DNA of 28,904 bases, taken from contig JAYPLD010000004.1 of the NCBI GenBank assembly GCA_038129265.1, forward strand, positions 1 to 28,904, given 5' to 3'. The notes under the pieces are model-generated. The model worked only from the letters and a program-made list of their open reading frames with translations, did no database searches and was not told where the DNA came from. This stretch comes from Crocinitomicaceae bacterium (lineage in GTDB: Bacteria > Bacteroidota > Bacteroidia > Flavobacteriales_D > Parvicellaceae). A program made the position numbers and the translations under genes. This document shows positions 12,494 to 21,867 of the stretch, piece after piece (position 1 is the first letter of the stretch; each line of letters begins with the position of its first letter).

Positions 12494-13378
12494 TTAATTA
12501 TAAAATTCGGGTTTAAATTTAGTAATGGTAATCAAATTAGTTTTAAGATCTTGAGACAGAACTGTTTTTAAAATAAAGTTTGATTGATCATACAAAATTT
12601 CTTTGTGTTTTATACGCACGTTTTTTCTATACTCATCAATAAAACTGACATTTCCCCATTCATCGTAATTGTATAAAAACCCTTTAATTGGGATGGTGTC
12701 TTTATGATCATAATATTGTATAGATTTTAATAATCCTTTTTCATTATACGCAAATACTTCTTTAGAAACTTGATTATTAATAAGTAATTTATTTTCTACT
12801 TTAATCAGATAACCGAGAGTATTATAAAAGTGCTGTTGTCTTTGGTATGGTCTGCCATTACTGTTTAAAATTACCTTCGTTTGAGAAGAATCTGTAACCT
12901 CAGTTTTATATCCTTCTTCAAAAACTACGTATTGTTCACCCAGCTTAAAATTAATTTTAGACTTGTTGGCATTTTTTTCTCTAGCATACACTTTTTTAAC
13001 CATTTCGTTCTGGTCATTATATGTGTAGGTATAGGAATAAAACCCATAAGAATCACTGAATCTTTTTACAATCATATTTTTATTCTTATCGTATTCGTAG
13101 AAAATGAAACTGGTGTCATTTTTTGGATTAACCTGAAAAGACCCGCCTAAAGAGCCATTTTCATTAAAAAAATAAGCTTGTTTTTTTCCTGTTTGTTTTA
13201 TGGTGCCTAGTTCTTTTTTAGTTGAAATAGTTCCTGTCAACGATTTTAGCTTAACGGAACGGATAAACTTTTCATTAAAAAAAGGATGGTCACTAAATAT
13301 GGTGCCTTTTTCGTTTTCCATCATTTGACCAAAGCCAAGAATAGGGATTAAAACAGAAAGGATATTAAATAACTTCAT
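12494..13378 (-). CDS. Secreted hypothetical protein with degenerate YD/RHS-like beta-hairpin repeats
   Basis: Signal peptide MKLFNILSVLIPILGFG-Q. Recurring units YFFNENGSL, YEYDKNKNM, YTYNDQNEM, FYNTLGYL, FAYNEKGLL, YNYDEWGNV. Confidence 0.72.
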   Translation of the reverse strand: MKLFNILSVLIPILGFGQMMENEKGTIFSDHPFFNEKFIRSVKLKSLTGTISTKKELGTIKQTGKKQAYFFNENGSLGGSFQVNPKNDTSFIFYEYDKNKNMIVKRFSDSYGFYSYTYTYNDQNEMVKKVYAREKNANKSKINFKLGEQYVVFEEGYKTEVTDSSQTKVILNSNGRPYQRQQHFYNTLGYLIKVENKLLINNQVSKEVFAYNEKGLLKSIQYYDHKDTIPIKGFLYNYDEWGNVSFIDEYRKNVRIKHKEILYDQSNFILKTVLSQDLKTNLITITKFKPEFYN

Positions 13379-15287
13379 TGTAAAGTTTTATGGCGTCTTT
13401 TATGGATTCTACAGACTCAAAACAATATTGGTCACCACAGACAAATATATTTCTGTTCGTTGAATTATATTTTCCCTTAAATAAAGTTATTGACACTTCT
13501 TTCTCTAAAACATACGTAAAGTCTATTGATTTTATGTGTTGAATTAGATCACAAATAGTTGAAAAATCAACATTGCACATGACTATTTTAGGATTTGAAT
13601 GATCGTACTTTCGTTTAACATGCATCCAATTTGAGTAATTGGGCAACCATTTTTTAGCTTTTTCTGCAACCACATCAAACATTTGTAGGGCTAACTTCTG
13701 GTATTTTTCTATCCTAGTCACTTCAAAAAGAGTTAACAAATTCTGAGCCATTATTGAATTTGATGATGGTATGACCTGATCTTCCACTTCAAACTTTGCT
13801 TTATATAAGTTTTGCTCATTGGAGTAACGAAACAATTTTTTTTCATGATCAAAAAAATCATTAATTACCGCCTCCATTAGATGAATAGCTTTTTCAAAAT
13901 AAAAACCAGCATGGTGAATAGATCCCATTTTGATCATAGCTGCAATAAACCAAGCATAGTCTTCTAAACAACCTTCCTTCTTCCCATGATTATACCTAAC
14001 TCGATAAATGGTTGTATCCTCCAAAAAGACCGTTATCATTTTTTGTAATACGATTTCAGCTTCCTTAGCCCATTTTTCATTTTTGTAAGCAATAGCGGCA
14101 TCTATTAATCCAATGACCATGAGTGAATTCCAACTGCATATTTGTTTAAAATCTATTGCTGGACTTGGATGAGTCGCTCTTATCTCACTTAATTTTTTTT
14201 TGATTTTCTTTTTTTCTTTTGATACTTGATTTACATCTCCATGCAAATGCCATCTATCCTCCCATGGTTTATTGACTGATGAAATGAAATAAGTTTGAAA
14301 GTACTCTTGCTCTACTTTTGAAAAGTTCTTCAGAATTTCTTCTTGAGAAAAGGTATAATATTTTCCCTCTCCTTCAATATTATCTGCGTCAATTGATGAG
14401 GCAAATAAGGAAGTATAAAAATCCTTGTATAAGAAAGTAATCGTGTCGAATACGGGGTATTTATATCGGTTATTACTGTGAAGCAAATCATATCTAGATA
14501 ATAAAGAAATCAATTGCGCATTATCATACAACATTTTTTCAAAATGTGGAATGTGCCACTCTTTATCTACACAATACCTAAAAAATCCACCATCTAAATG
14601 ATCATATAAACCTCTATTTACAATAGCGTCTAATGACAATGTAACATGATGCTGAAATCTATCATCTGGGATATACATCAAAAAATGAGGAACAGTAGGC
14701 ATCGGGAATTTTTGAGAATAATTTAAATTACCGTGTTCTAAATCTAAAAATTTCACCCACTCCAACCAATCCTCTTGAACTTTGAAAATTTCAGTAGAAT
14801 ACGTTTTGTTTTGAAATTCTATTTGTTCAATTACATCTAAAGCAATGTCTTTTAGTTTTTGTGGATTTTCATTGTATAAGAACTGAAACCTGCTTAATAA
14901 TTGAATCCATTGATCCCTTTTAAAATAAGTCCCTGCATAAATGGGCTTTCCGTCAGGTAAAAGGATGCAATTTAGCGGCCAACCTCCATTACCTTTAGTC
15001 TCTAATAAGAAGTCCATGTAGACGTGATCCACATCTGGATGTTCTTCACGATCCACTTTTATGGAAATAAATTGGCTATTCATCAAGTTTGCCACTATTG
15101 AATCAGCAAATGTTTCTTTCTCCATGACATGACACCAATGACAAGCAGCATAGCCTATACTTAAAACAATTAATTTATCTTGCTGTTGAGCGCTTTCTAA
15201 TGTTTTCTGAGACCAGCTTTTCCAATGTATTGGATTTTGAGCGTGTTGTTTCAAATATAAACTTTCGGCTTTTTTAAGCTCGTTCAT
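13365..15287 (-). CDS. YyaL/SPATA20 family thioredoxin-domain (DUF255) plus (alpha/alpha)6-barrel protein
   Basis: YLKQHAQNPIHW, IGYAACHWCHVMEKETF, IKVDREEHPDVD, GGWPLN, PHFEKMLYDNAQL. Confidence 0.9.
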   Translation of the reverse strand: MNELKKAESLYLKQHAQNPIHWKSWSQKTLESAQQQDKLIVLSIGYAACHWCHVMEKETFADSIVANLMNSQFISIKVDREEHPDVDHVYMDFLLETKGNGGWPLNCILLPDGKPIYAGTYFKRDQWIQLLSRFQFLYNENPQKLKDIALDVIEQIEFQNKTYSTEIFKVQEDWLEWVKFLDLEHGNLNYSQKFPMPTVPHFLMYIPDDRFQHHVTLSLDAIVNRGLYDHLDGGFFRYCVDKEWHIPHFEKMLYDNAQLISLLSRYDLLHSNNRYKYPVFDTITFLYKDFYTSLFASSIDADNIEGEGKYYTFSQEEILKNFSKVEQEYFQTYFISSVNKPWEDRWHLHGDVNQVSKEKKKIKKKLSEIRATHPSPAIDFKQICSWNSLMVIGLIDAAIAYKNEKWAKEAEIVLQKMITVFLEDTTIYRVRYNHGKKEGCLEDYAWFIAAMIKMGSIHHAGFYFEKAIHLMEAVINDFFDHEKKLFRYSNEQNLYKAKFEVEDQVIPSSNSIMAQNLLTLFEVTRIEKYQKLALQMFDVVAEKAKKWLPNYSNWMHVKRKYDHSNPKIVMCNVDFSTICDLIQHIKSIDFTYVLEKEVSITLFKGKYNSTNRNIFVCGDQYCFESVESIKDAIKLYNEVI

Positions 15288-15289
15288 AG

Positions 15290-16297
15290 CTAATATTTAC
15301 TGGCTACCTTTTTAATTTCCTCTGCTATTTGCTCTCTTAACGATAATGGTGCAATCACTTCACAGTCACTACCATAACCTAAAATGGTCATTTTTAGTTC
15401 ATAAGTTACCAGTAAAAAGTAGGAAAAAAGATGGTCTCCATTATTATGTACTTCACTCAACTTTTGAGAATGATGTAATGGCTGTGATGTAAGGTATTTT
15501 GAAAGAATATTGTTGGTTTTAAGTATTATTTCTTGAGGTTTCTCATCAAAAACCGTAATACCTATAGAGTGCTGAAAAAAATAATCTGGATTAAAAGTAG
15601 CATCTACAGAAAATTGATTTTCCAACGTTTGCAAGTTTGAAATTCTATCCAGTCCAAATGTGATTACTTTATTTTTTAACTCACTTTTTCCTATGAGATA
15701 CCATCTGTTACGATATTCTTTTAGCAAATACGGATGAACTCGCCTAACCGTTTTTACATCTTTGATATAATTATAATATTCAAACTGCAATACATTTCTT
15801 TTCTTGATCGCTTCTAAAACAGATTCTAAATATTCATTCCCTGAAATAGTAGGTAATGTTTCGAATTGAATGTTATTTTCTGTGTTATTGAATTTTTGTT
15901 GAGAGGTAACTGCTCTATCTAATATTTTATCAATTGCAAACTGATACTGACTAAATAGACTTGTGCTTTTAAATTGATGTAAAATGGTAGATGCTGCCTT
16001 GATAGCCGAAATGTCTTTCTCCGTAAGTGGAACATCATCCATCGTAAATTCATCATTCGTATAGTAATATCCTTTTTCTCTTTTGCTGTAAGATATGGGG
16101 GCGTCATGCTCCATTCTCATAGCAAAAATGTCTTTTTCAATAGTGGAGTGGCAAATATGTAAACCTTCTGAAGTGCCATAAATTTCTTCCTCACATGCTT
16201 GCCTTAATTGTTCTTTTGTTGGGTAAGGATTATATTCATTTCGAATAGATCTATCTATGATTCTATATCTTAATAAAGCATTCTTAATGGCTGGCAT
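15290..16297 (-). CDS. WYL domain transcriptional regulator (wHTH-WYL-WCX)
   Basis: N-terminal KNALLRYRIID...STIEKDI..MR wHTH. WYL core VHPYLLKEYRNRWYLIG ... FGLDRI. WCX tail ILGYGSDCEVIAPLSLR. Confidence 0.93.
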   Translation of the reverse strand: MPAIKNALLRYRIIDRSIRNEYNPYPTKEQLRQACEEEIYGTSEGLHICHSTIEKDIFAMRMEHDAPISYSKREKGYYYTNDEFTMDDVPLTEKDISAIKAASTILHQFKSTSLFSQYQFAIDKILDRAVTSQQKFNNTENNIQFETLPTISGNEYLESVLEAIKKRNVLQFEYYNYIKDVKTVRRVHPYLLKEYRNRWYLIGKSELKNKVITFGLDRISNLQTLENQFSVDATFNPDYFFQHSIGITVFDEKPQEIILKTNNILSKYLTSQPLHHSQKLSEVHNNGDHLFSYFLLVTYELKMTILGYGSDCEVIAPLSLREQIAEEIKKVASKY

Positions 16298-16300
16298 TAT

Positions 16301-18031
16301 CTAAAATTGAAAATAAATAAATGGTTGTAGGCTTGTTGAAGCAATTTGGTAAATTAAAAATACCACTAGCAAAGATGTTAAAATCTGAAAACCTACATGT
16401 AGATTGGCAAAATAATTTCGATAATAACTTTTTACTTTTTCAGGAATAAAATGAATTATAAAGCCTATTAAAATGACCAATAACACCTCGTAATATGCAC
16501 TAACCACATCCGAGATTAATGCCCATCTAAAATCAAATATCAATTGATAAAGCATTTCATTTGCAGTGAACCATTCAGAAAGGATGTTATGACCACCGTC
16601 CATATCTTCCCAAGAATTGGTGGATCCGCTTCTAAACCAAATTCTCGTAAATGAGACAAAGTTAAAGGTGATTAGTATCCCCCAAGCCCTATTCCACCAT
16701 TTAGATTTATTACCCCAGGGGCTGAATTTTCTCCAAATTTTATAAATAACTATGCCCAATCCATTTAGACCTCCCCAGAGAACAAAATTCCAACTTGCTC
16801 CATGCCATAAGCCTCCCAATAACATGGTAAGCATTATGTTGACATTAGTAATATACCAGCCCTTAAACGATGGAATAAATTCCCCTAAAAGTTGAACAAG
16901 AAAAATTATAGATAATATTAAAAAGAGTAATACCCATGAACCACTTATTAAAAAAACAAATAGTACAATAAAGGAAAGTGCAATTACGCTGAATAACGAT
17001 CCTCTTCGGTTTCCTCCCATTGGGATATACAGGTAATCTTTTAACCAAGTTGACAAAGAAATATGCCATCGTTTCCAAAAATTACCACAATTATCAGCTT
17101 TGTATGGAGAATTGAAATTTTTTGGTAGATAAAACCCCATAATCATAGCAATTCCAATAGCAATATCCGTATACCCCGAAAAATCAGCATAAACTTGCAG
17201 TGAATAGCCATAAAGAGCCAATAAATTTTCTAGACCTGAGAACATGCTTGGGTTATCAAAAACTCTATCCACAAAATTAACTGCGATGTAATCTGCCAAA
17301 AGAAACTTTTTAAGCAGGCCATTTAGAATCCAAAACACAGCCATTCCAAATTCTTTTTTTGTGACGGCATATGGCTTGTAAATTTGAGGTATAAATTCTG
17401 ATGCCCTCACGATTGGCCCTGCAACCAACTGAGGAAAAAACGAGACATAAAAAGCAAAGTCAATTACATGAGAAACAGGCTTTAACTTCTTTCTGTAAAT
17501 ATCAATGGCATAGGACATTGTTTGAAAAGTATAGAATGATATACCAATTGGTAATAATATTTGATCTACTCGAAAGGTAGTGCCTGTAAGCTTATTGGTG
17601 GCAAGTGCAAAATGATTTATGGGGTGCCAAGAAGAATCAAAAATGGCATTGAAAGAATCCGCAAAGAAATAGGCATATTTGAAATACACTAATAAGGTTA
17701 GATTTAATGTAACACTCACTGCTAACCAAAGAGTGGATTTTAGTCCATCTAAATTTCGATAAATTCTTTGCCCAATTACAAAATCAAGGATGGTAGAAAA
17801 GAGTAAAATGGAGAAGAAGAACCCACTGGTTTTGTAATAGAAATATATGCTCACCAAGAAGAGAAATAAACTTCTAATTCGAAGCCTTTTGTGAAATAAG
17901 CTGTAACCTGCTAAAACAACAAGAAAGAATATCCAAAACGGATACTCCGTAAAAATCATTGGATGTTCCCCCTGATCTATAAAAGGAGAAAAGATCTTTG
18001 CTACAAATTTAGAAACGTCAAATTCTCCCAT
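16301..18031 (-). CDS. MBOAT family O-acyltransferase, AlgI/PatA type, with fused C-terminal FIYFQF motif
   Basis: LPIGISFYTFQ, SFFPQLVAGPIVRA, YADFSGYTD, NFNSPY, FWKRWHISLS.W.KDYLYIP, GGLWHGA (His410, codon 16802-16804), terminal PFIYFQF-stop. Confidence 0.93.
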   Translation of the reverse strand: MGEFDVSKFVAKIFSPFIDQGEHPMIFTEYPFWIFFLVVLAGYSLFHKRLRIRSLFLFLVSIYFYYKTSGFFFSILLFSTILDFVIGQRIYRNLDGLKSTLWLAVSVTLNLTLLVYFKYAYFFADSFNAIFDSSWHPINHFALATNKLTGTTFRVDQILLPIGISFYTFQTMSYAIDIYRKKLKPVSHVIDFAFYVSFFPQLVAGPIVRASEFIPQIYKPYAVTKKEFGMAVFWILNGLLKKFLLADYIAVNFVDRVFDNPSMFSGLENLLALYGYSLQVYADFSGYTDIAIGIAMIMGFYLPKNFNSPYKADNCGNFWKRWHISLSTWLKDYLYIPMGGNRRGSLFSVIALSFIVLFVFLISGSWVLLFLILSIIFLVQLLGEFIPSFKGWYITNVNIMLTMLLGGLWHGASWNFVLWGGLNGLGIVIYKIWRKFSPWGNKSKWWNRAWGILITFNFVSFTRIWFRSGSTNSWEDMDGGHNILSEWFTANEMLYQLIFDFRWALISDVVSAYYEVLLVILIGFIIHFIPEKVKSYYRNYFANLHVGFQILTSLLVVFLIYQIASTSLQPFIYFQF

Positions 18032-19244
18032 TTTTTTCTATGAATTCTTTGTATGATTTAATGAAGGCTTCAAAAAACAAATCTCCAGTTAATTTATAAC
18101 CTTTGGTGGTGAAATGAATTTTATCAGATTTAGCAAGACCGTTTTCTTCCCATTTAACGATGCTATTCATCCCCCCCATAACAGAAAATAAATCCCAAAT
18201 TACGCCATCGTGTTTTTTAGCTAACTTATACATTGTTTTTTTAGCTTCAATCACACGTTTATTTACCACTTTCTTCTTATAATAACTATCGTTATTAGTC
18301 GTAAATAAAAAATTGGCATCTGGAAATTGATCTTTAATCAGATTGATTAATGTGTCATAATTTTTAAAATAGGTTTCCGGTAAGAATGAAGGTTCATATG
18401 CGTCATTGATTCCAATAGAAAAGATGATCAAATCAGGGTTGACTAGATCAAGTTGATCCATAAAATATTCGCATCTTAAATAGCTAGGAACACTAGCCCC
18501 ATTTACTCCAACTGAATGATACGTAATTCCCTTTAATTGTGATGAAAAATTTAGTCCAAATAGTGAAAATTTCCCTTTTTCATGATTTTCTCTTTCAATC
18601 CGTACTATAACTGAGTCAACGAGGTTAGATAACACAAATGATTGTCTATCCTCCCTCAGCTCTATTGAAACAGTCGAGTCGGTAAGTATATCTATACAAT
18701 GATTATGTAAAGAATCATCTACTAAAAAGTCAATTTGATCAAAAAAACAATTCACGCAATGTTCTTTGTTTACATAAAAAGTAATTAATGATGTAGAGTC
18801 CATTAACTCTGCTCTAGCCCCTAAAAGACCAAATGGTGAATCGTGATAAGAAACCGAATTTCTAAAGCCATTCCATTCTCCACTGTGAGTTGTTTTTAAA
18901 TACGGTGATGCATTGGATTTTATTAACTTAAACGGGAAATACAAGCCTCTTGAAGCACCATTATAAGGAACTATATGCTGAAAGTGATCTCTTAATCTAT
19001 TAGACCAAACGTCTGCTTGAATGTGTGAACCACCAAATTGGATGATATTAATTTCCTCTCCTCCATAAAGCCATTGATTACGTATTTTGCTTAAAAAGCT
19101 ACCCCACTTTTTTTTATTAAAAATAACCAGTTCATTATCCTTTTCGTCTATAAAATTATATTGCGAATGATCGTGTGGATAATGCTGAGCGTGAGAAAAA
19201 GAACAAATCAACAAGCCAAAATATATACTTAGAAAAATCTTCAT
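18018..19244 (-). CDS. SGNH/GDSL family protein (PatB/Ape/AlgJ-like)
   Basis: Signal peptide. Block I GGSHIQAD, block II GVNGAS, block III GINDA, block V DKIHF. Confidence 0.85.
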   Translation of the reverse strand: MKIFLSIYFGLLICSFSHAQHYPHDHSQYNFIDEKDNELVIFNKKKWGSFLSKIRNQWLYGGEEINIIQFGGSHIQADVWSNRLRDHFQHIVPYNGASRGLYFPFKLIKSNASPYLKTTHSGEWNGFRNSVSYHDSPFGLLGARAELMDSTSLITFYVNKEHCVNCFFDQIDFLVDDSLHNHCIDILTDSTVSIELREDRQSFVLSNLVDSVIVRIERENHEKGKFSLFGLNFSSQLKGITYHSVGVNGASVPSYLRCEYFMDQLDLVNPDLIIFSIGINDAYEPSFLPETYFKNYDTLINLIKDQFPDANFLFTTNNDSYYKKKVVNKRVIEAKKTMYKLAKKHDGVIWDLFSVMGGMNSIVKWEENGLAKSDKIHFTTKGYKLTGDLFFEAFIKSYKEFIEKNGRI

Positions 19245-19246
19245 TC

Positions 19247-20671
19247 TTATTTATTCTCCTTGTAAAAAGTGTAACATTCCATTAAATCTGCTATGAACAT
19301 ATCTGCTACTTCCCTTGCCCCTTTATTTGTAAAATGAATGTAATCTCTTGCTGCTAGGGGTGGTTTCAATTTAACCCAATCTTGAATGGATCCTTCTCCT
19401 CCCATATTGAGGTAGGTATCCCAATAGCAAGAATTTGTTTCAAAAGCTGCTTTTTTAAGGGCTTGACGAACTTCATTAATATAAGGATAACTTATAAAAG
19501 ATGTGGACTCTTTTTTAGCCATATCTGCGGGACCTATCACAATAACTTGAGCCTTTGGATTTATTCTTTTCAACTTTTTGATTTGGCTTTTGAAGTAATT
19601 TCCATATCGTGCGCTGCGCTCAATGCTTTTCATGTGGGGTATAGCATTACCACCAAATTCTAACAAGAATAAATCCGGTGATAATTGAGTTAACATTTCT
19701 GAAAGACTGGTTTTATCAATTCTCGCAAATTCAGTTCCTGATGCCCCTCTTAAAGGTATATTATCAACTACCACTCCATTATTTCCTTCCAAAGCAATAC
19801 CATATACTAGTGGTGAAGACGTAGATTTCATTTTAATTTCAAAATAAGATGGTGCTCTATTAAAACTGATCGACTTTTTTTGAATTTGAGATGAAGGAGC
19901 AATGGTGTCCACGCGAATAATGGAATCAGCTAATAGAAATGAAAATATAGTGGTATCCTGATTTGTGAAAAAGATGTCAAAATGGGTATAGTTACGACAG
20001 TGTTTGTACGATTTAGTTGGTTTTCCAATTTTAATCCATCCTTCATAAATTAAAGACGAATCTTTTTTTATTGGTTCAATTTCACAAAATGAAAATAGCG
20101 CTCCATACTTTTTATGTTTTACTATGGTATCAACATAAGGGCCGAATCCAGTTCTACGGATCCAATTGGAAGAATATTCATTTTTTATACTGATTTTTCG
20201 AGTTGCAGGAATTACAGCATATGCACCGGCCCCTAGCCCTCCAAAGTCTTTTTGTAACCTTTCTCTCAATCTGCCTGAAATTCGATCTGCTTCAATCTGT
20301 GAATCTCCGTAGTGCATTACGCGGACCTTTTTATTTTTTGCTTTTTCCAGTTTTTTAAAAAAGGGAAATAATAGGGTTATATCGTTTTGAGGAAATTGGA
20401 TTTTCTTTTCTGCGTTTAGAACCGAATCCTCGTACTTTTTTCTAATTAATTCCTCTACTTTTTTAATACTGTCTGCCAAAAACTTTTCTCTTGCAATTAT
20501 GGAATCTAAATTGATTTTATTTTTCAATTCAATGGGTTCTGTGTTTAGATTCGAATCTACATATGCTGTTTTATCAAAAAAACGAAAGTTTACCTGACCA
20601 ATATGAATACCATTTTCAGGAAAAATGAAAAAGACCATCATTAAAGCGGCAAACAATGAACAGAAATACAA
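19247..20671 (-). CDS. Membrane-anchored SGNH/GDSL family protein (PatB/AlgX-like); start codon uncertain
   Basis: N-terminal TM segment. Block I GDSQIEAD, block II LRGASG, block III FGGN, block V DYIHF. Start is TTG 20671 or a non-canonical ATA 20692 (see findings). Confidence 0.82.
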   Translation of the reverse strand: MYFCSLFAALMMVFFIFPENGIHIGQVNFRFFDKTAYVDSNLNTEPIELKNKINLDSIIAREKFLADSIKKVEELIRKKYEDSVLNAEKKIQFPQNDITLLFPFFKKLEKAKNKKVRVMHYGDSQIEADRISGRLRERLQKDFGGLGAGAYAVIPATRKISIKNEYSSNWIRRTGFGPYVDTIVKHKKYGALFSFCEIEPIKKDSSLIYEGWIKIGKPTKSYKHCRNYTHFDIFFTNQDTTIFSFLLADSIIRVDTIAPSSQIQKKSISFNRAPSYFEIKMKSTSSPLVYGIALEGNNGVVVDNIPLRGASGTEFARIDKTSLSEMLTQLSPDLFLLEFGGNAIPHMKSIERSARYGNYFKSQIKKLKRINPKAQVIVIGPADMAKKESTSFISYPYINEVRQALKKAAFETNSCYWDTYLNMGGEGSIQDWVKLKPPLAARDYIHFTNKGAREVADMFIADLMECYTFYKENK

Positions 20672-20688
20672 TAGTGCGTAGTGGGGCT

Positions 20689-21867
20689 TTATGGATTTTT
20701 CTTCTTTAATATTATTTTAAAATTTTGTTTTTGATATGGGTTGTATTCATTAATCTCTCTAACTGAGCAGTCATATTTTTTAGCAATTTCCCAAAACTGT
20801 AATGACTTATCTTTTTGAAATGTATGTGTTTCGAAACTATCACTATTTTCATTTCTACCCACAATAATATTTTGATCCACATAAATTAATGAAGAACTTA
20901 GGTTATTCCAGTTCATCAAATTCCTTACTGATACATTGTATTTTAAGGCAATTTTTCCTAATACATCTCCTTTAACCACTTTATGAATTTTATCTTCTGT
21001 TAATAGGTCACTTTGAAAAAATGAATTTTCATTCAATGAATCTTGTAACGATGAAATTTTGGACTCATTTTTCTTTAGAAAGTCTCCTACATCCTTGCTT
21101 AGCAAAATAGGATAATCTGCTGGCAATACATTCCTGAGAAGTACCTGATTATTTTGCAAAATTAGTTCGAAGTCTAGTTTTTTAAAATCATATATAGCAT
21201 CAAAACTAAGAGGCTTTGAAAATCTAAAATAGGATTGGTCTGTTTTTGTATTGTTATCATATATTTTATCGTAATGAAAACGGGCAGAATCTAAACTCAA
21301 AAGCATATCAATTTCTTGGATATATGGAATTAGTAAATCTGGTCTTTTTTCCAGATTTAAAACAAAATTTGGAGATATTAAAAAAGCAAGTAGAGTGGCT
21401 TTCTTTTGACCATAAATTTTCCAAAGACGATTCAATTCATTGGCAGCCGCTATTGTTGATTTTTTATAATTCAGCCTTTCATCAATAAAATAATTCATGA
21501 TTAAGCCATTGTTCAGAGCGGTAATGTAATTTAAATTCCATACCCCAACGCCTAAATGACTGGGAGATTTTAGATTAGAATAAGATGTAATGATGGGGAT
21601 TTTGGAAAAGAAGGAAGGTAAATCAAATGGCTCAAATACAGAATCCATATAATTAACCATGTCTAAATGTTCACAAATCAAGGATTTTATTTTTCTTTTC
21701 TCTTTTTTACTAACTAGAGAAGCAGCGATAGAAGAATGAAATTTAATATGACACGTATTGTCTTCATTAAACTGTAGATCATTCAAAGGGAAATAAGCAC
21801 TTTGCGCGTTTATCAACTGGTTAATGATGATGAAAAATAATATCCCAATTCCACATGATTTATACAC
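20689..21867 (-). CDS. MltD-like lytic transglycosylase-LysM protein, apparently catalytically degenerate
   Basis: GTG start, signal peptide. SLT-like segment LPSFFSKIPIITS...GVGVWNL...IDERLNYKKSTIAAANEL..LWKIYG...LLAF. One clear LysM (HKVVKGDVLGKIALKYNVSVRNLMNWNNL) and a degenerate second. Confidence 0.8.
   Translation of the reverse strand: MYKSCGIGILFFIIINQLINAQSAYFPLNDLQFNEDNTCHIKFHSSIAASLVSKKEKRKIKSLICEHLDMVNYMDSVFEPFDLPSFFSKIPIITSYSNLKSPSHLGVGVWNLNYITALNNGLIMNYFIDERLNYKKSTIAAANELNRLWKIYGQKKATLLAFLISPNFVLNLEKRPDLLIPYIQEIDMLLSLDSARFHYDKIYDNNTKTDQSYFRFSKPLSFDAIYDFKKLDFELILQNNQVLLRNVLPADYPILLSKDVGDFLKKNESKISSLQDSLNENSFFQSDLLTEDKIHKVVKGDVLGKIALKYNVSVRNLMNWNNLSSSLIYVDQNIIVGRNENSDSFETHTFQKDKSLQFWEIAKKYDCSVREINEYNPYQKQNFKIILKKKNP

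Follow-up and report, generated by a model that had tools for sequence, protein, structure and literature searches.

Peptidoglycan O-acetylation controls autolysins and lysozyme resistance. To our knowledge, its mechanism in Gram-negative bacteria has been worked out only for the PatA/PatB system, and the Bacteroidota, including gut Bacteroides with heavily O-acetylated walls, are as far as we know without PatB and have two Ape1-like proteins instead. Here we analyzed a 28,904-nt stretch of DNA (the window) from a Crocinitomicaceae bacterium (GenBank GCA_038129265.1, contig JAYPLD010000004.1, positions 1 to 28,904), the host genome of which is 2.16 Mb and 93% complete. The window carries a four-gene operon that we read, with a probability of roughly 0.6, as a Bacteroidota-type O-acetylpeptidoglycan (OAP) operon with a non-catalytic, glycan-binding relic of the lytic transglycosylase MltD as a helper. 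The under-described feature of this operon is its first gene, which encodes an MltD-like protein minus the catalytic residues (hereafter dead MltD).

A cluster of ape1b, ape1c and pat, in that order, has been described in Bacteroides thetaiotaomicron, B. fragilis and Porphyromonas gingivalis, with peptidoglycan O-acetylation measured at 69% in B. fragilis and 27% in B. thetaiotaomicron (Weadge, Pfeffer and Clarke, 2005; PMC1199599); a 2024 review cites 56–66% MurNAc O-acetylation in Bacteroides (PMC11382707). In the PatA/PatB/Ape1 system of Neisseria and Campylobacter, PatA auto-acetylates the tyrosine of a C-terminal FxYxxF motif, and PatB acetylates peptidoglycan from that acetyl-tyrosine (Anderson et al., 2025; PMC12148441). 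An initial annotation of the window had invoked an acyl relay from an MBOAT protein through a C-terminal tyrosine to the serine of an SGNH protein, which is what has been published for PatA/PatB. A transglycosylase has also been tied to an Ape1-type enzyme in Neisseria meningitidis, where LtgA forms a complex with Ape1 and raises the activity of this esterase, also when the substrate is one on which LtgA itself does not act (Williams et al., 2020; PMC7083599). The core of the operon and the tyrosine-tail shuttle are already known, since they are covered by the cluster described in 2005 and by the PatA/PatB tail mechanism of 2025.

The operon in the window is a tight array of four minus-strand ORFs between positions 16,301 and 21,867, in the order LysM/MltD-like gene, SGNH gene, SGNH gene and MBOAT gene, with spacings of 17 nt and 2 nt followed by a 14-nt overlap between the second SGNH gene and the MBOAT gene (Table 1). 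The ORFs lie where the initial annotation had placed its four-gene array, and the Pfam matches agree with it (LysM, E 2.2e-14; Lipase_GDSL_2, E 1.5e-10 for the 474-aa and 7.8e-13 for the 408-aa SGNH protein; MBOAT, E 3.8e-22). The last three genes (the trio) are like the Bacteroides/Porphyromonas OAP cluster in their order, in encoding two Ape1-family SGNH proteins with Ser and Asp/His (DxxH) motifs, and in ending with an AlgI-like MBOAT gene, and the same trio can be found in three Bacteroidales loci (L065, L066 and L076). We therefore name the two SGNH proteins by position, as the Ape1b-position protein (P0003, 474 aa) and the Ape1c-position protein (P0002, 408 aa). The homology, that is, the Ape1-family SGNH pair and the ape1b-ape1c-pat order, supports the peptidoglycan O-acetylation and de-O-acetylation module that had been proposed from the letters of the window, and would make peptidoglycan the substrate. 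The gene upstream of the Bacteroides cluster encodes a cation-efflux transporter, with no LysM or MltD-like gene mentioned (PMC1199599), whereas the Glu-less MltD gene heads the operon in the window and in many Flavobacteriales and Cytophagales relatives. The architecture had first been put forward as unfamiliar; this does not hold for the trio, known since 2005 (PMC1199599), but it stands for the head gene, as our literature search, made outside subscription-only papers, found no description of a dead transglycosylase in an OAP cluster.

The head gene product (P0004) consists of a signal peptide, a helical core, one strong LysM domain and a second, degenerate LysM-like repeat, which was not called by Pfam and shows a beta-alpha-alpha-beta pattern in the structural model. 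The AlphaFold2 (AF2) model of P0004 (pLDDT 74) had Pseudomonas aeruginosa MltD (8RHF/8RHE) as its best Foldseek match (E 1.7e-9), and the Pfam SLT match was sub-threshold at 17.1 bits. With P. aeruginosa MltD (8RHE/8RHF/8RHI; PMC11327851), P0004 shares the SLT-type helical core, a linker module and C-terminal LysM repeats, but the catalytic Glu is gone from it, as are the Gln of GLWQ and the Asn of AYN, only one good LysM is left, and its signal peptide is an ordinary one without the lipobox Cys at the end. In the alignment with active MltDs, Thr94 replaces the catalytic Glu, GLWQ has become GVWN, and AYN has become AFL (within AFLIS). These features bear out the dead MltD-LysM protein of the initial annotation. 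With neither the catalytic Glu nor the remaining active-site motifs in place, P0004 is predicted to be unable to cut glycan.

The catalytic Glu was absent from every one of 29 operon-linked copies from 29 loci, its place being taken by Leu (14 copies), Cys (five), Ile (four), Thr (two) and others. The dead family has also lost the Q, F and M of GLWQFM, the N of AYN and several other active-site positions. As a control, we compared 34 unlinked MltDs, made up of the 29 best profile hits in a 300-genome phylum sample and five homologues from protein searches; all 34 keep the Glu, with the IVES, GLWQF and AYN motifs. The alignment profile of the dead MltDs matched in 300 of 301 genomes phylum-wide, active MltDs scoring too, and was used for the control set only. 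In a maximum-likelihood tree, the 29 dead and 34 active sequences part at a single split (support 94/91), and the dead branches are much longer. One operon-linked copy, from a Lentimicrobiaceae locus (L052, 3611-5218), is intermediate, having Leu in place of the Glu while keeping GLWQ, and branches beside the active clade. Between the window and its closest relative (L003), dN/dS was 0.22 for the dead MltD, 0.05 for Ape1b, 0.15 for Ape1c and 0.04 for the MBOAT gene, which puts the dead MltD under selection that is weaker than that on its three neighbours. The Glu-less MltD is thus a real gene under purifying selection.

An intact ORF under purifying selection, with conserved residues that include the Ser after the lost Glu, D129 and R131, is also what would be expected if the MltD-like protein had kept enzymatic activity through another catalytic residue. 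The residues kept in the dead family (S95, G108, W110, D129, R131, T138 and A140-141, and the KST-AA stretch) are, however, conserved in active MltDs as well and therefore look structural. The residues that stand in for the Glu vary and are mostly hydrophobic, GLWQ and AYN have also lost their Gln and Asn, respectively, and no new invariant acidic residue can be seen among the operon-linked copies. We consider such alternative catalysis very improbable. Elsewhere in the host genome there is at least one active SLT-domain protein, with IES and GPFQLM motifs, and no full-length active MltD was found in this 93%-complete assembly. A LysM-rich protein of 586 aa on contig C55 of the same genome (G000; L085:1213-2970) was considered as the true MltD and rejected; after three LysM domains, its open-ended ORF encodes a periplasmic-binding-protein-like domain, and the product is not a transglycosylase.

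We surveyed the 80 best relatives of the MBOAT protein to see what precedes the trio. The SGNH-SGNH-MBOAT order on one strand is shared by about 50 related loci, of which 43 were informative, having the trio and enough upstream sequence. The dead MltD lies directly upstream of the trio on the same strand in 30 of these 43 loci, often with overlapping stop and start codons (4 nt), and the source genomes are labelled Crocinitomicaceae, Vicingaceae, Cryomorphaceae, Cyclobacteriaceae, Roseivirgaceae and Lentimicrobiaceae. The upstream genes of the remaining 13 loci are unrelated. We also drew an even sample of 150 further Bacteroidota genomes, 28 of which had an Ape1b-like gene; 26 informative upstream regions were retrieved.

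Three observations weigh against a helper role for the dead MltD, and they also favour the view that the trio is an OAP system and the dead MltD a mere neighbour that takes no direct part in transferring or removing acetyl groups, being a general peptidoglycan-binding structural or regulatory protein that, for example, shields the wall from, or competes with, active transglycosylases. A dead MltD is present in just one of the 26 informative upstream regions of the even sample, from a genome that belongs to the same order as the window, so that the trio lacks it in most sampled Bacteroidota; the other regions hold housekeeping genes or, in a single family, a third, small GDSL gene. A Glu-less copy in a 6.1-Mb genome of the window's order (G087) adjoins genes for an MFS transporter and a prolyl oligopeptidase (L166:4187-5584, contig C8), apart from the lone Ape1b-like gene of that genome. 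The rate at which the dead MltD evolves is also four to five times as high as for Ape1b and MBOAT. On the other side, all 29 Glu-less copies of the related-locus survey stand directly upstream of Ape1b on the same strand, with frequent 4-nt overlaps, and none of the 29 sampled active MltD loci has an Ape1b neighbour within 1.5 kb on each side. We regard the mere-neighbour explanation as unlikely.

As the dead MltD is absent from most sampled lineages, the OAP trio works without it there. The linkage in one of 26 regions and the unlinked copy in G087 together make the dead MltD a lineage-restricted accessory that lies outside the minimal machine, and not a core subunit. The expectation that the LysM gene is kept beside the trio was accordingly borne out among the MBOAT-related loci (30/43) and failed in the even phylum sample (1/26) and in G087. 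The sole Ape1b-like gene of G087 (L167:744-2207) is on another contig, with neither Ape1c nor MBOAT beside it. In a different setting, one Bacteroidota family (f30) has Ape1b in 8/8 sampled genomes, with a small GDSL/SGNH gene of about 230-260 aa directly upstream of ape1b (for example at L133:227-949, L134:1552-2250 and L136:1442-2215), in the slot that the dead MltD takes in the window's lineage; the f30 clusters may comprise three SGNH proteins.

We judged the conservation of the catalytic residues of the two SGNH proteins over about 47 relatives of each. Ser124 (in GDSQ), Asp443 and His446 of P0003 are invariant, as are Ser73 (in GGSH), Asp374 and His377 of P0002, for which one alignment row has an X at Ser73; the intact Ser/Asp/His motifs reported at the outset thus hold across both families. 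The AF2 model of P0003 (pLDDT 86.8) has an N-terminal membrane helix, a long helix (residues 47-88) and an SGNH domain with a beta-sandwich insert at about residues 149-306, whereas P0002 has a signal-peptide-like N-terminal stretch and no further membrane helix. The best Foldseek matches of the P0003 model were Campylobacter jejuni Ape1 (8GKD, TM 0.78) and N. meningitidis Ape1 (4K3U, TM 0.80), on which the insert superposes too; xylan esterases rank far below the Ape1 structures, and no PatB entry is among the top 50 matches. Both SGNH proteins matched C. jejuni Ape1 (8GKD/8GLD) and N. meningitidis Ape1 as single sequences and as profiles. The 474-aa family profile matched 4K3U at E 1.1e-28, and the 408-aa family profile matched 4K3U at E 6.2e-35 and C. 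jejuni Ape1 at E 2e-29 over nearly its full length. The strong matches of both family profiles are solved Ape1 esterases only, and neither profile matched a PatB chain at E <= 1. A search for PF04311, taken here as the PatB family, gave no match and counts as weak evidence. The distance from the catalytic Ser to the His is 322 residues in P0003 and 304 in P0002, compared with about 170 in PatB (Ser133 and His305; PMC12148441). No additional Ape-like gene was found in the 93%-complete host genome. In summary, no PatB-type transferase was found, and both SGNH proteins have the Ape1 esterase fold.

With no PatB-type transferase found and two proteins of Ape1 fold, one of these Ape1-like proteins would have to be the acetyltransferase. 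We lean slightly towards the Ape1b-position protein, which has an uncleaved N-terminal membrane helix and a spacer of roughly 100 residues, both PatB-like, while the Ape1c-position protein, which has no membrane helix, is similar to true Ape1 from end to end. Two points run the other way. The Ape1c-position gene overlaps the MBOAT gene, and Zymomonas pairs Ape1b with Ape2/PatB (Weadge et al., 2005; PMC1199599), from which it would follow that Ape1b is the esterase and Ape1c the transferase.

The MBOAT protein (P0001) is the sole MBOAT that we found in the 93%-complete genome. Its catalytic His410 and terminal FIYFQF, with Tyr573 in the tail, are both present as the initial annotation had stated. 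The tail reads FIYF[QAVI]F in 76 of the 76 relatives whose match extends to the C-terminus, and His410 is kept in all 76 as well. The invariant MBOAT His and the FxYxxF tail are shared with the PatA/PatB/Ape1 system (FIYANF in NgPatA, FIYFQF in the window), as is an Ape1-fold esterase with an inserted beta-sandwich (a CBM35-like insert) (PMC12148441). That system differs in having a compact PatB SGNH protein without the inserted sandwich, whereas both SGNH proteins of the window have the Ape1 architecture; the gene order is also reversed, with the MBOAT gene last in the window, and the window's MBOAT protein exceeds C. jejuni PatA in length by about 130 residues, judging from Tyr573 versus Tyr445.

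Close paralogues of the MBOAT also occur without any Ape-like neighbour. There are 27 of these (L012, L019, L022, L025 and about 23 others), which are 52-59% identical to it and have the FIYFQF tail too; upstream of the one in L022 (6248-9686) are genes for a CE4 polysaccharide deacetylase and a methyltransferase. The Bacteroidota-type operon or its MBOAT can further be seen on five contigs labelled Comamonadaceae, Gammaproteobacteria or Desulfobacterales (L010, L011, L013, L016 and L063). The dead MltDs of L010 and L016 fall within Bacteroidota clades in the tree, which suggests that these contigs are mis-binned or mislabelled metagenome-assembled genomes (MAGs).

The module could instead acylate another glycan, such as a capsule, an exopolysaccharide or a lipopolysaccharide (LPS) sugar, with the LysM/MltD-like protein merely as a wall anchor. 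MBOAT-SGNH pairs are known to modify alginate, cellulose and secondary wall polymers too (PMC12148441), phage tailspike deacetylases carry Ape1-like folds (PMC12115436), and same-tail MBOAT paralogues adjoin CE4 deacetylase and methyltransferase genes. However, among solved structures both SGNH proteins come closest to the two peptidoglycan O-acetylesterases, with xylan esterases far behind; the ten ORFs scanned between positions 12,494 and 25,512 include no gene for a glycosyltransferase or for polysaccharide export; and the Bacteroides species that carry the same trio have O-acetylated peptidoglycan (PMC1199599). We consider a different glycan target improbable.

Under the reading that we favour, an OAP operon with an MltD relic as helper, the PatA-like MBOAT would take acetyl from cytoplasmic acetyl-CoA onto Tyr573 of its FIYFQF tail, by analogy with PatA. 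One Ape1-fold SGNH protein would accept the acetyl group on its catalytic Ser and pass it to the O-6 of peptidoglycan MurNAc, and the other would strip the acetyl off. In the lineages that have it, the exported dead MltD paralogue, which keeps the fold and one good LysM and is presumably incapable of cutting glycan, most likely acts as a non-catalytic peptidoglycan-binding helper, which could place the acetyl-handling enzymes along glycan strands or modulate them there; the dedicated targeting role that the initial annotation gave it is hypothetical. Any physical contact with these enzymes would have its closest precedent in the LtgA-Ape1 pair of N. meningitidis. The likeness lies in a transglycosylase-fold protein tied to an Ape1-type enzyme, the partner in the window being only a candidate; the gene for LtgA, an active enzyme of the Slt70 type, lies elsewhere in the genome, whereas the candidate is an inactive MltD-type paralogue inside the operon. 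A complex prediction for the dead MltD (residues 23-392) and the Ape1b-position protein (residues 31-474) scored 0.00 in two runs, which gives no verdict and weighs neither way. We would put forward only tentatively the stronger proposal of a PatB-less machine with the dead MltD as its pseudoenzyme subunit, binding nascent or O-acetylated strands and presenting them to an Ape1-fold SGNH esterase turned O-acetyltransferase.

Table 1. Features of the operon, with positions in the window.
Feature	Position	Strand	Evidence
Glu-less MltD-like protein P0004, signal peptide, 392 aa, first gene of the operon	20689..21867	-	ORF and translation; AF2/Foldseek; Pfam
Degenerate SLT (family 1D lytic transglycosylase) core, residues about 52-200	21268..21714	-	Alignments
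Lost catalytic position Thr94, codon ACA	21586-21588	-	Alignment with MltD-type transglycosylases
LysM domain 1, intact, residues 295-336	20860..20985	-	Pfam PF01476, E 2.2e-14; whole-genome scan gives same coordinates
Second LysM-like repeat, degenerate, residues 345-388	20704..20835	-	Alignment with last LysM of canonical MltD; model
Ape1b-position SGNH protein P0003, 474 aa; Ser124, Asp443, His446	19247..20671	-	Pfam, alignment, AF2, Foldseek
Ape1c-position SGNH protein P0002, 408 aa; Ser73, Asp374, His377	18018..19244	-	Pfam, alignment, profile matches
PatA-like MBOAT P0001, 576 aa	16301..18031	-	Pfam, alignment
MBOAT His410 (in LWHGAS)	16802-16804	-	Sequence
MBOAT acyl-shuttle tail FIYFQF with Tyr573	16304-16321	-	Sequence

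The host genome is that of an uncultured, marine, Flavobacteriales-like bacterium. The closest public locus is in a marine single-cell genome labelled uncultured Bacteroidetes (MBOAT identity 96%), followed by one in a Crocinitomicaceae MAG. Downstream of the MBOAT gene, the minus strand of the window continues with genes for a WYL/WCX regulator (15290-16297), a DUF255 thioredoxin-like protein (13365-15287) and a 294-aa ORF without a Pfam match (12494-13378), the successive junctions being a 3-nt gap, a 2-nt gap and a 14-nt overlap. These three genes were considered as members of the conserved module and rejected, because they follow the MBOAT gene only in the four closest loci (L003-L006). 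A scan for sigma-70 promoters and terminators, which is ill-suited to Bacteroidota promoters, returned fewer sites than in shuffled sequences.

The value of these findings is limited in that the core cluster has been known since 2005 and the helper is confined to some lineages. If our reading is true, the conserved and selected dead transglycosylase of this OAP operon would clearly exemplify a pseudoenzyme of the cell wall that has been taken on as a helper, and would open a way to study how acetylation is directed to particular glycan strands. Should the dead MltD prove to be a pseudoenzyme subunit, the site and extent of wall acetylation in these bacteria would hinge on a former wall-cutting enzyme.

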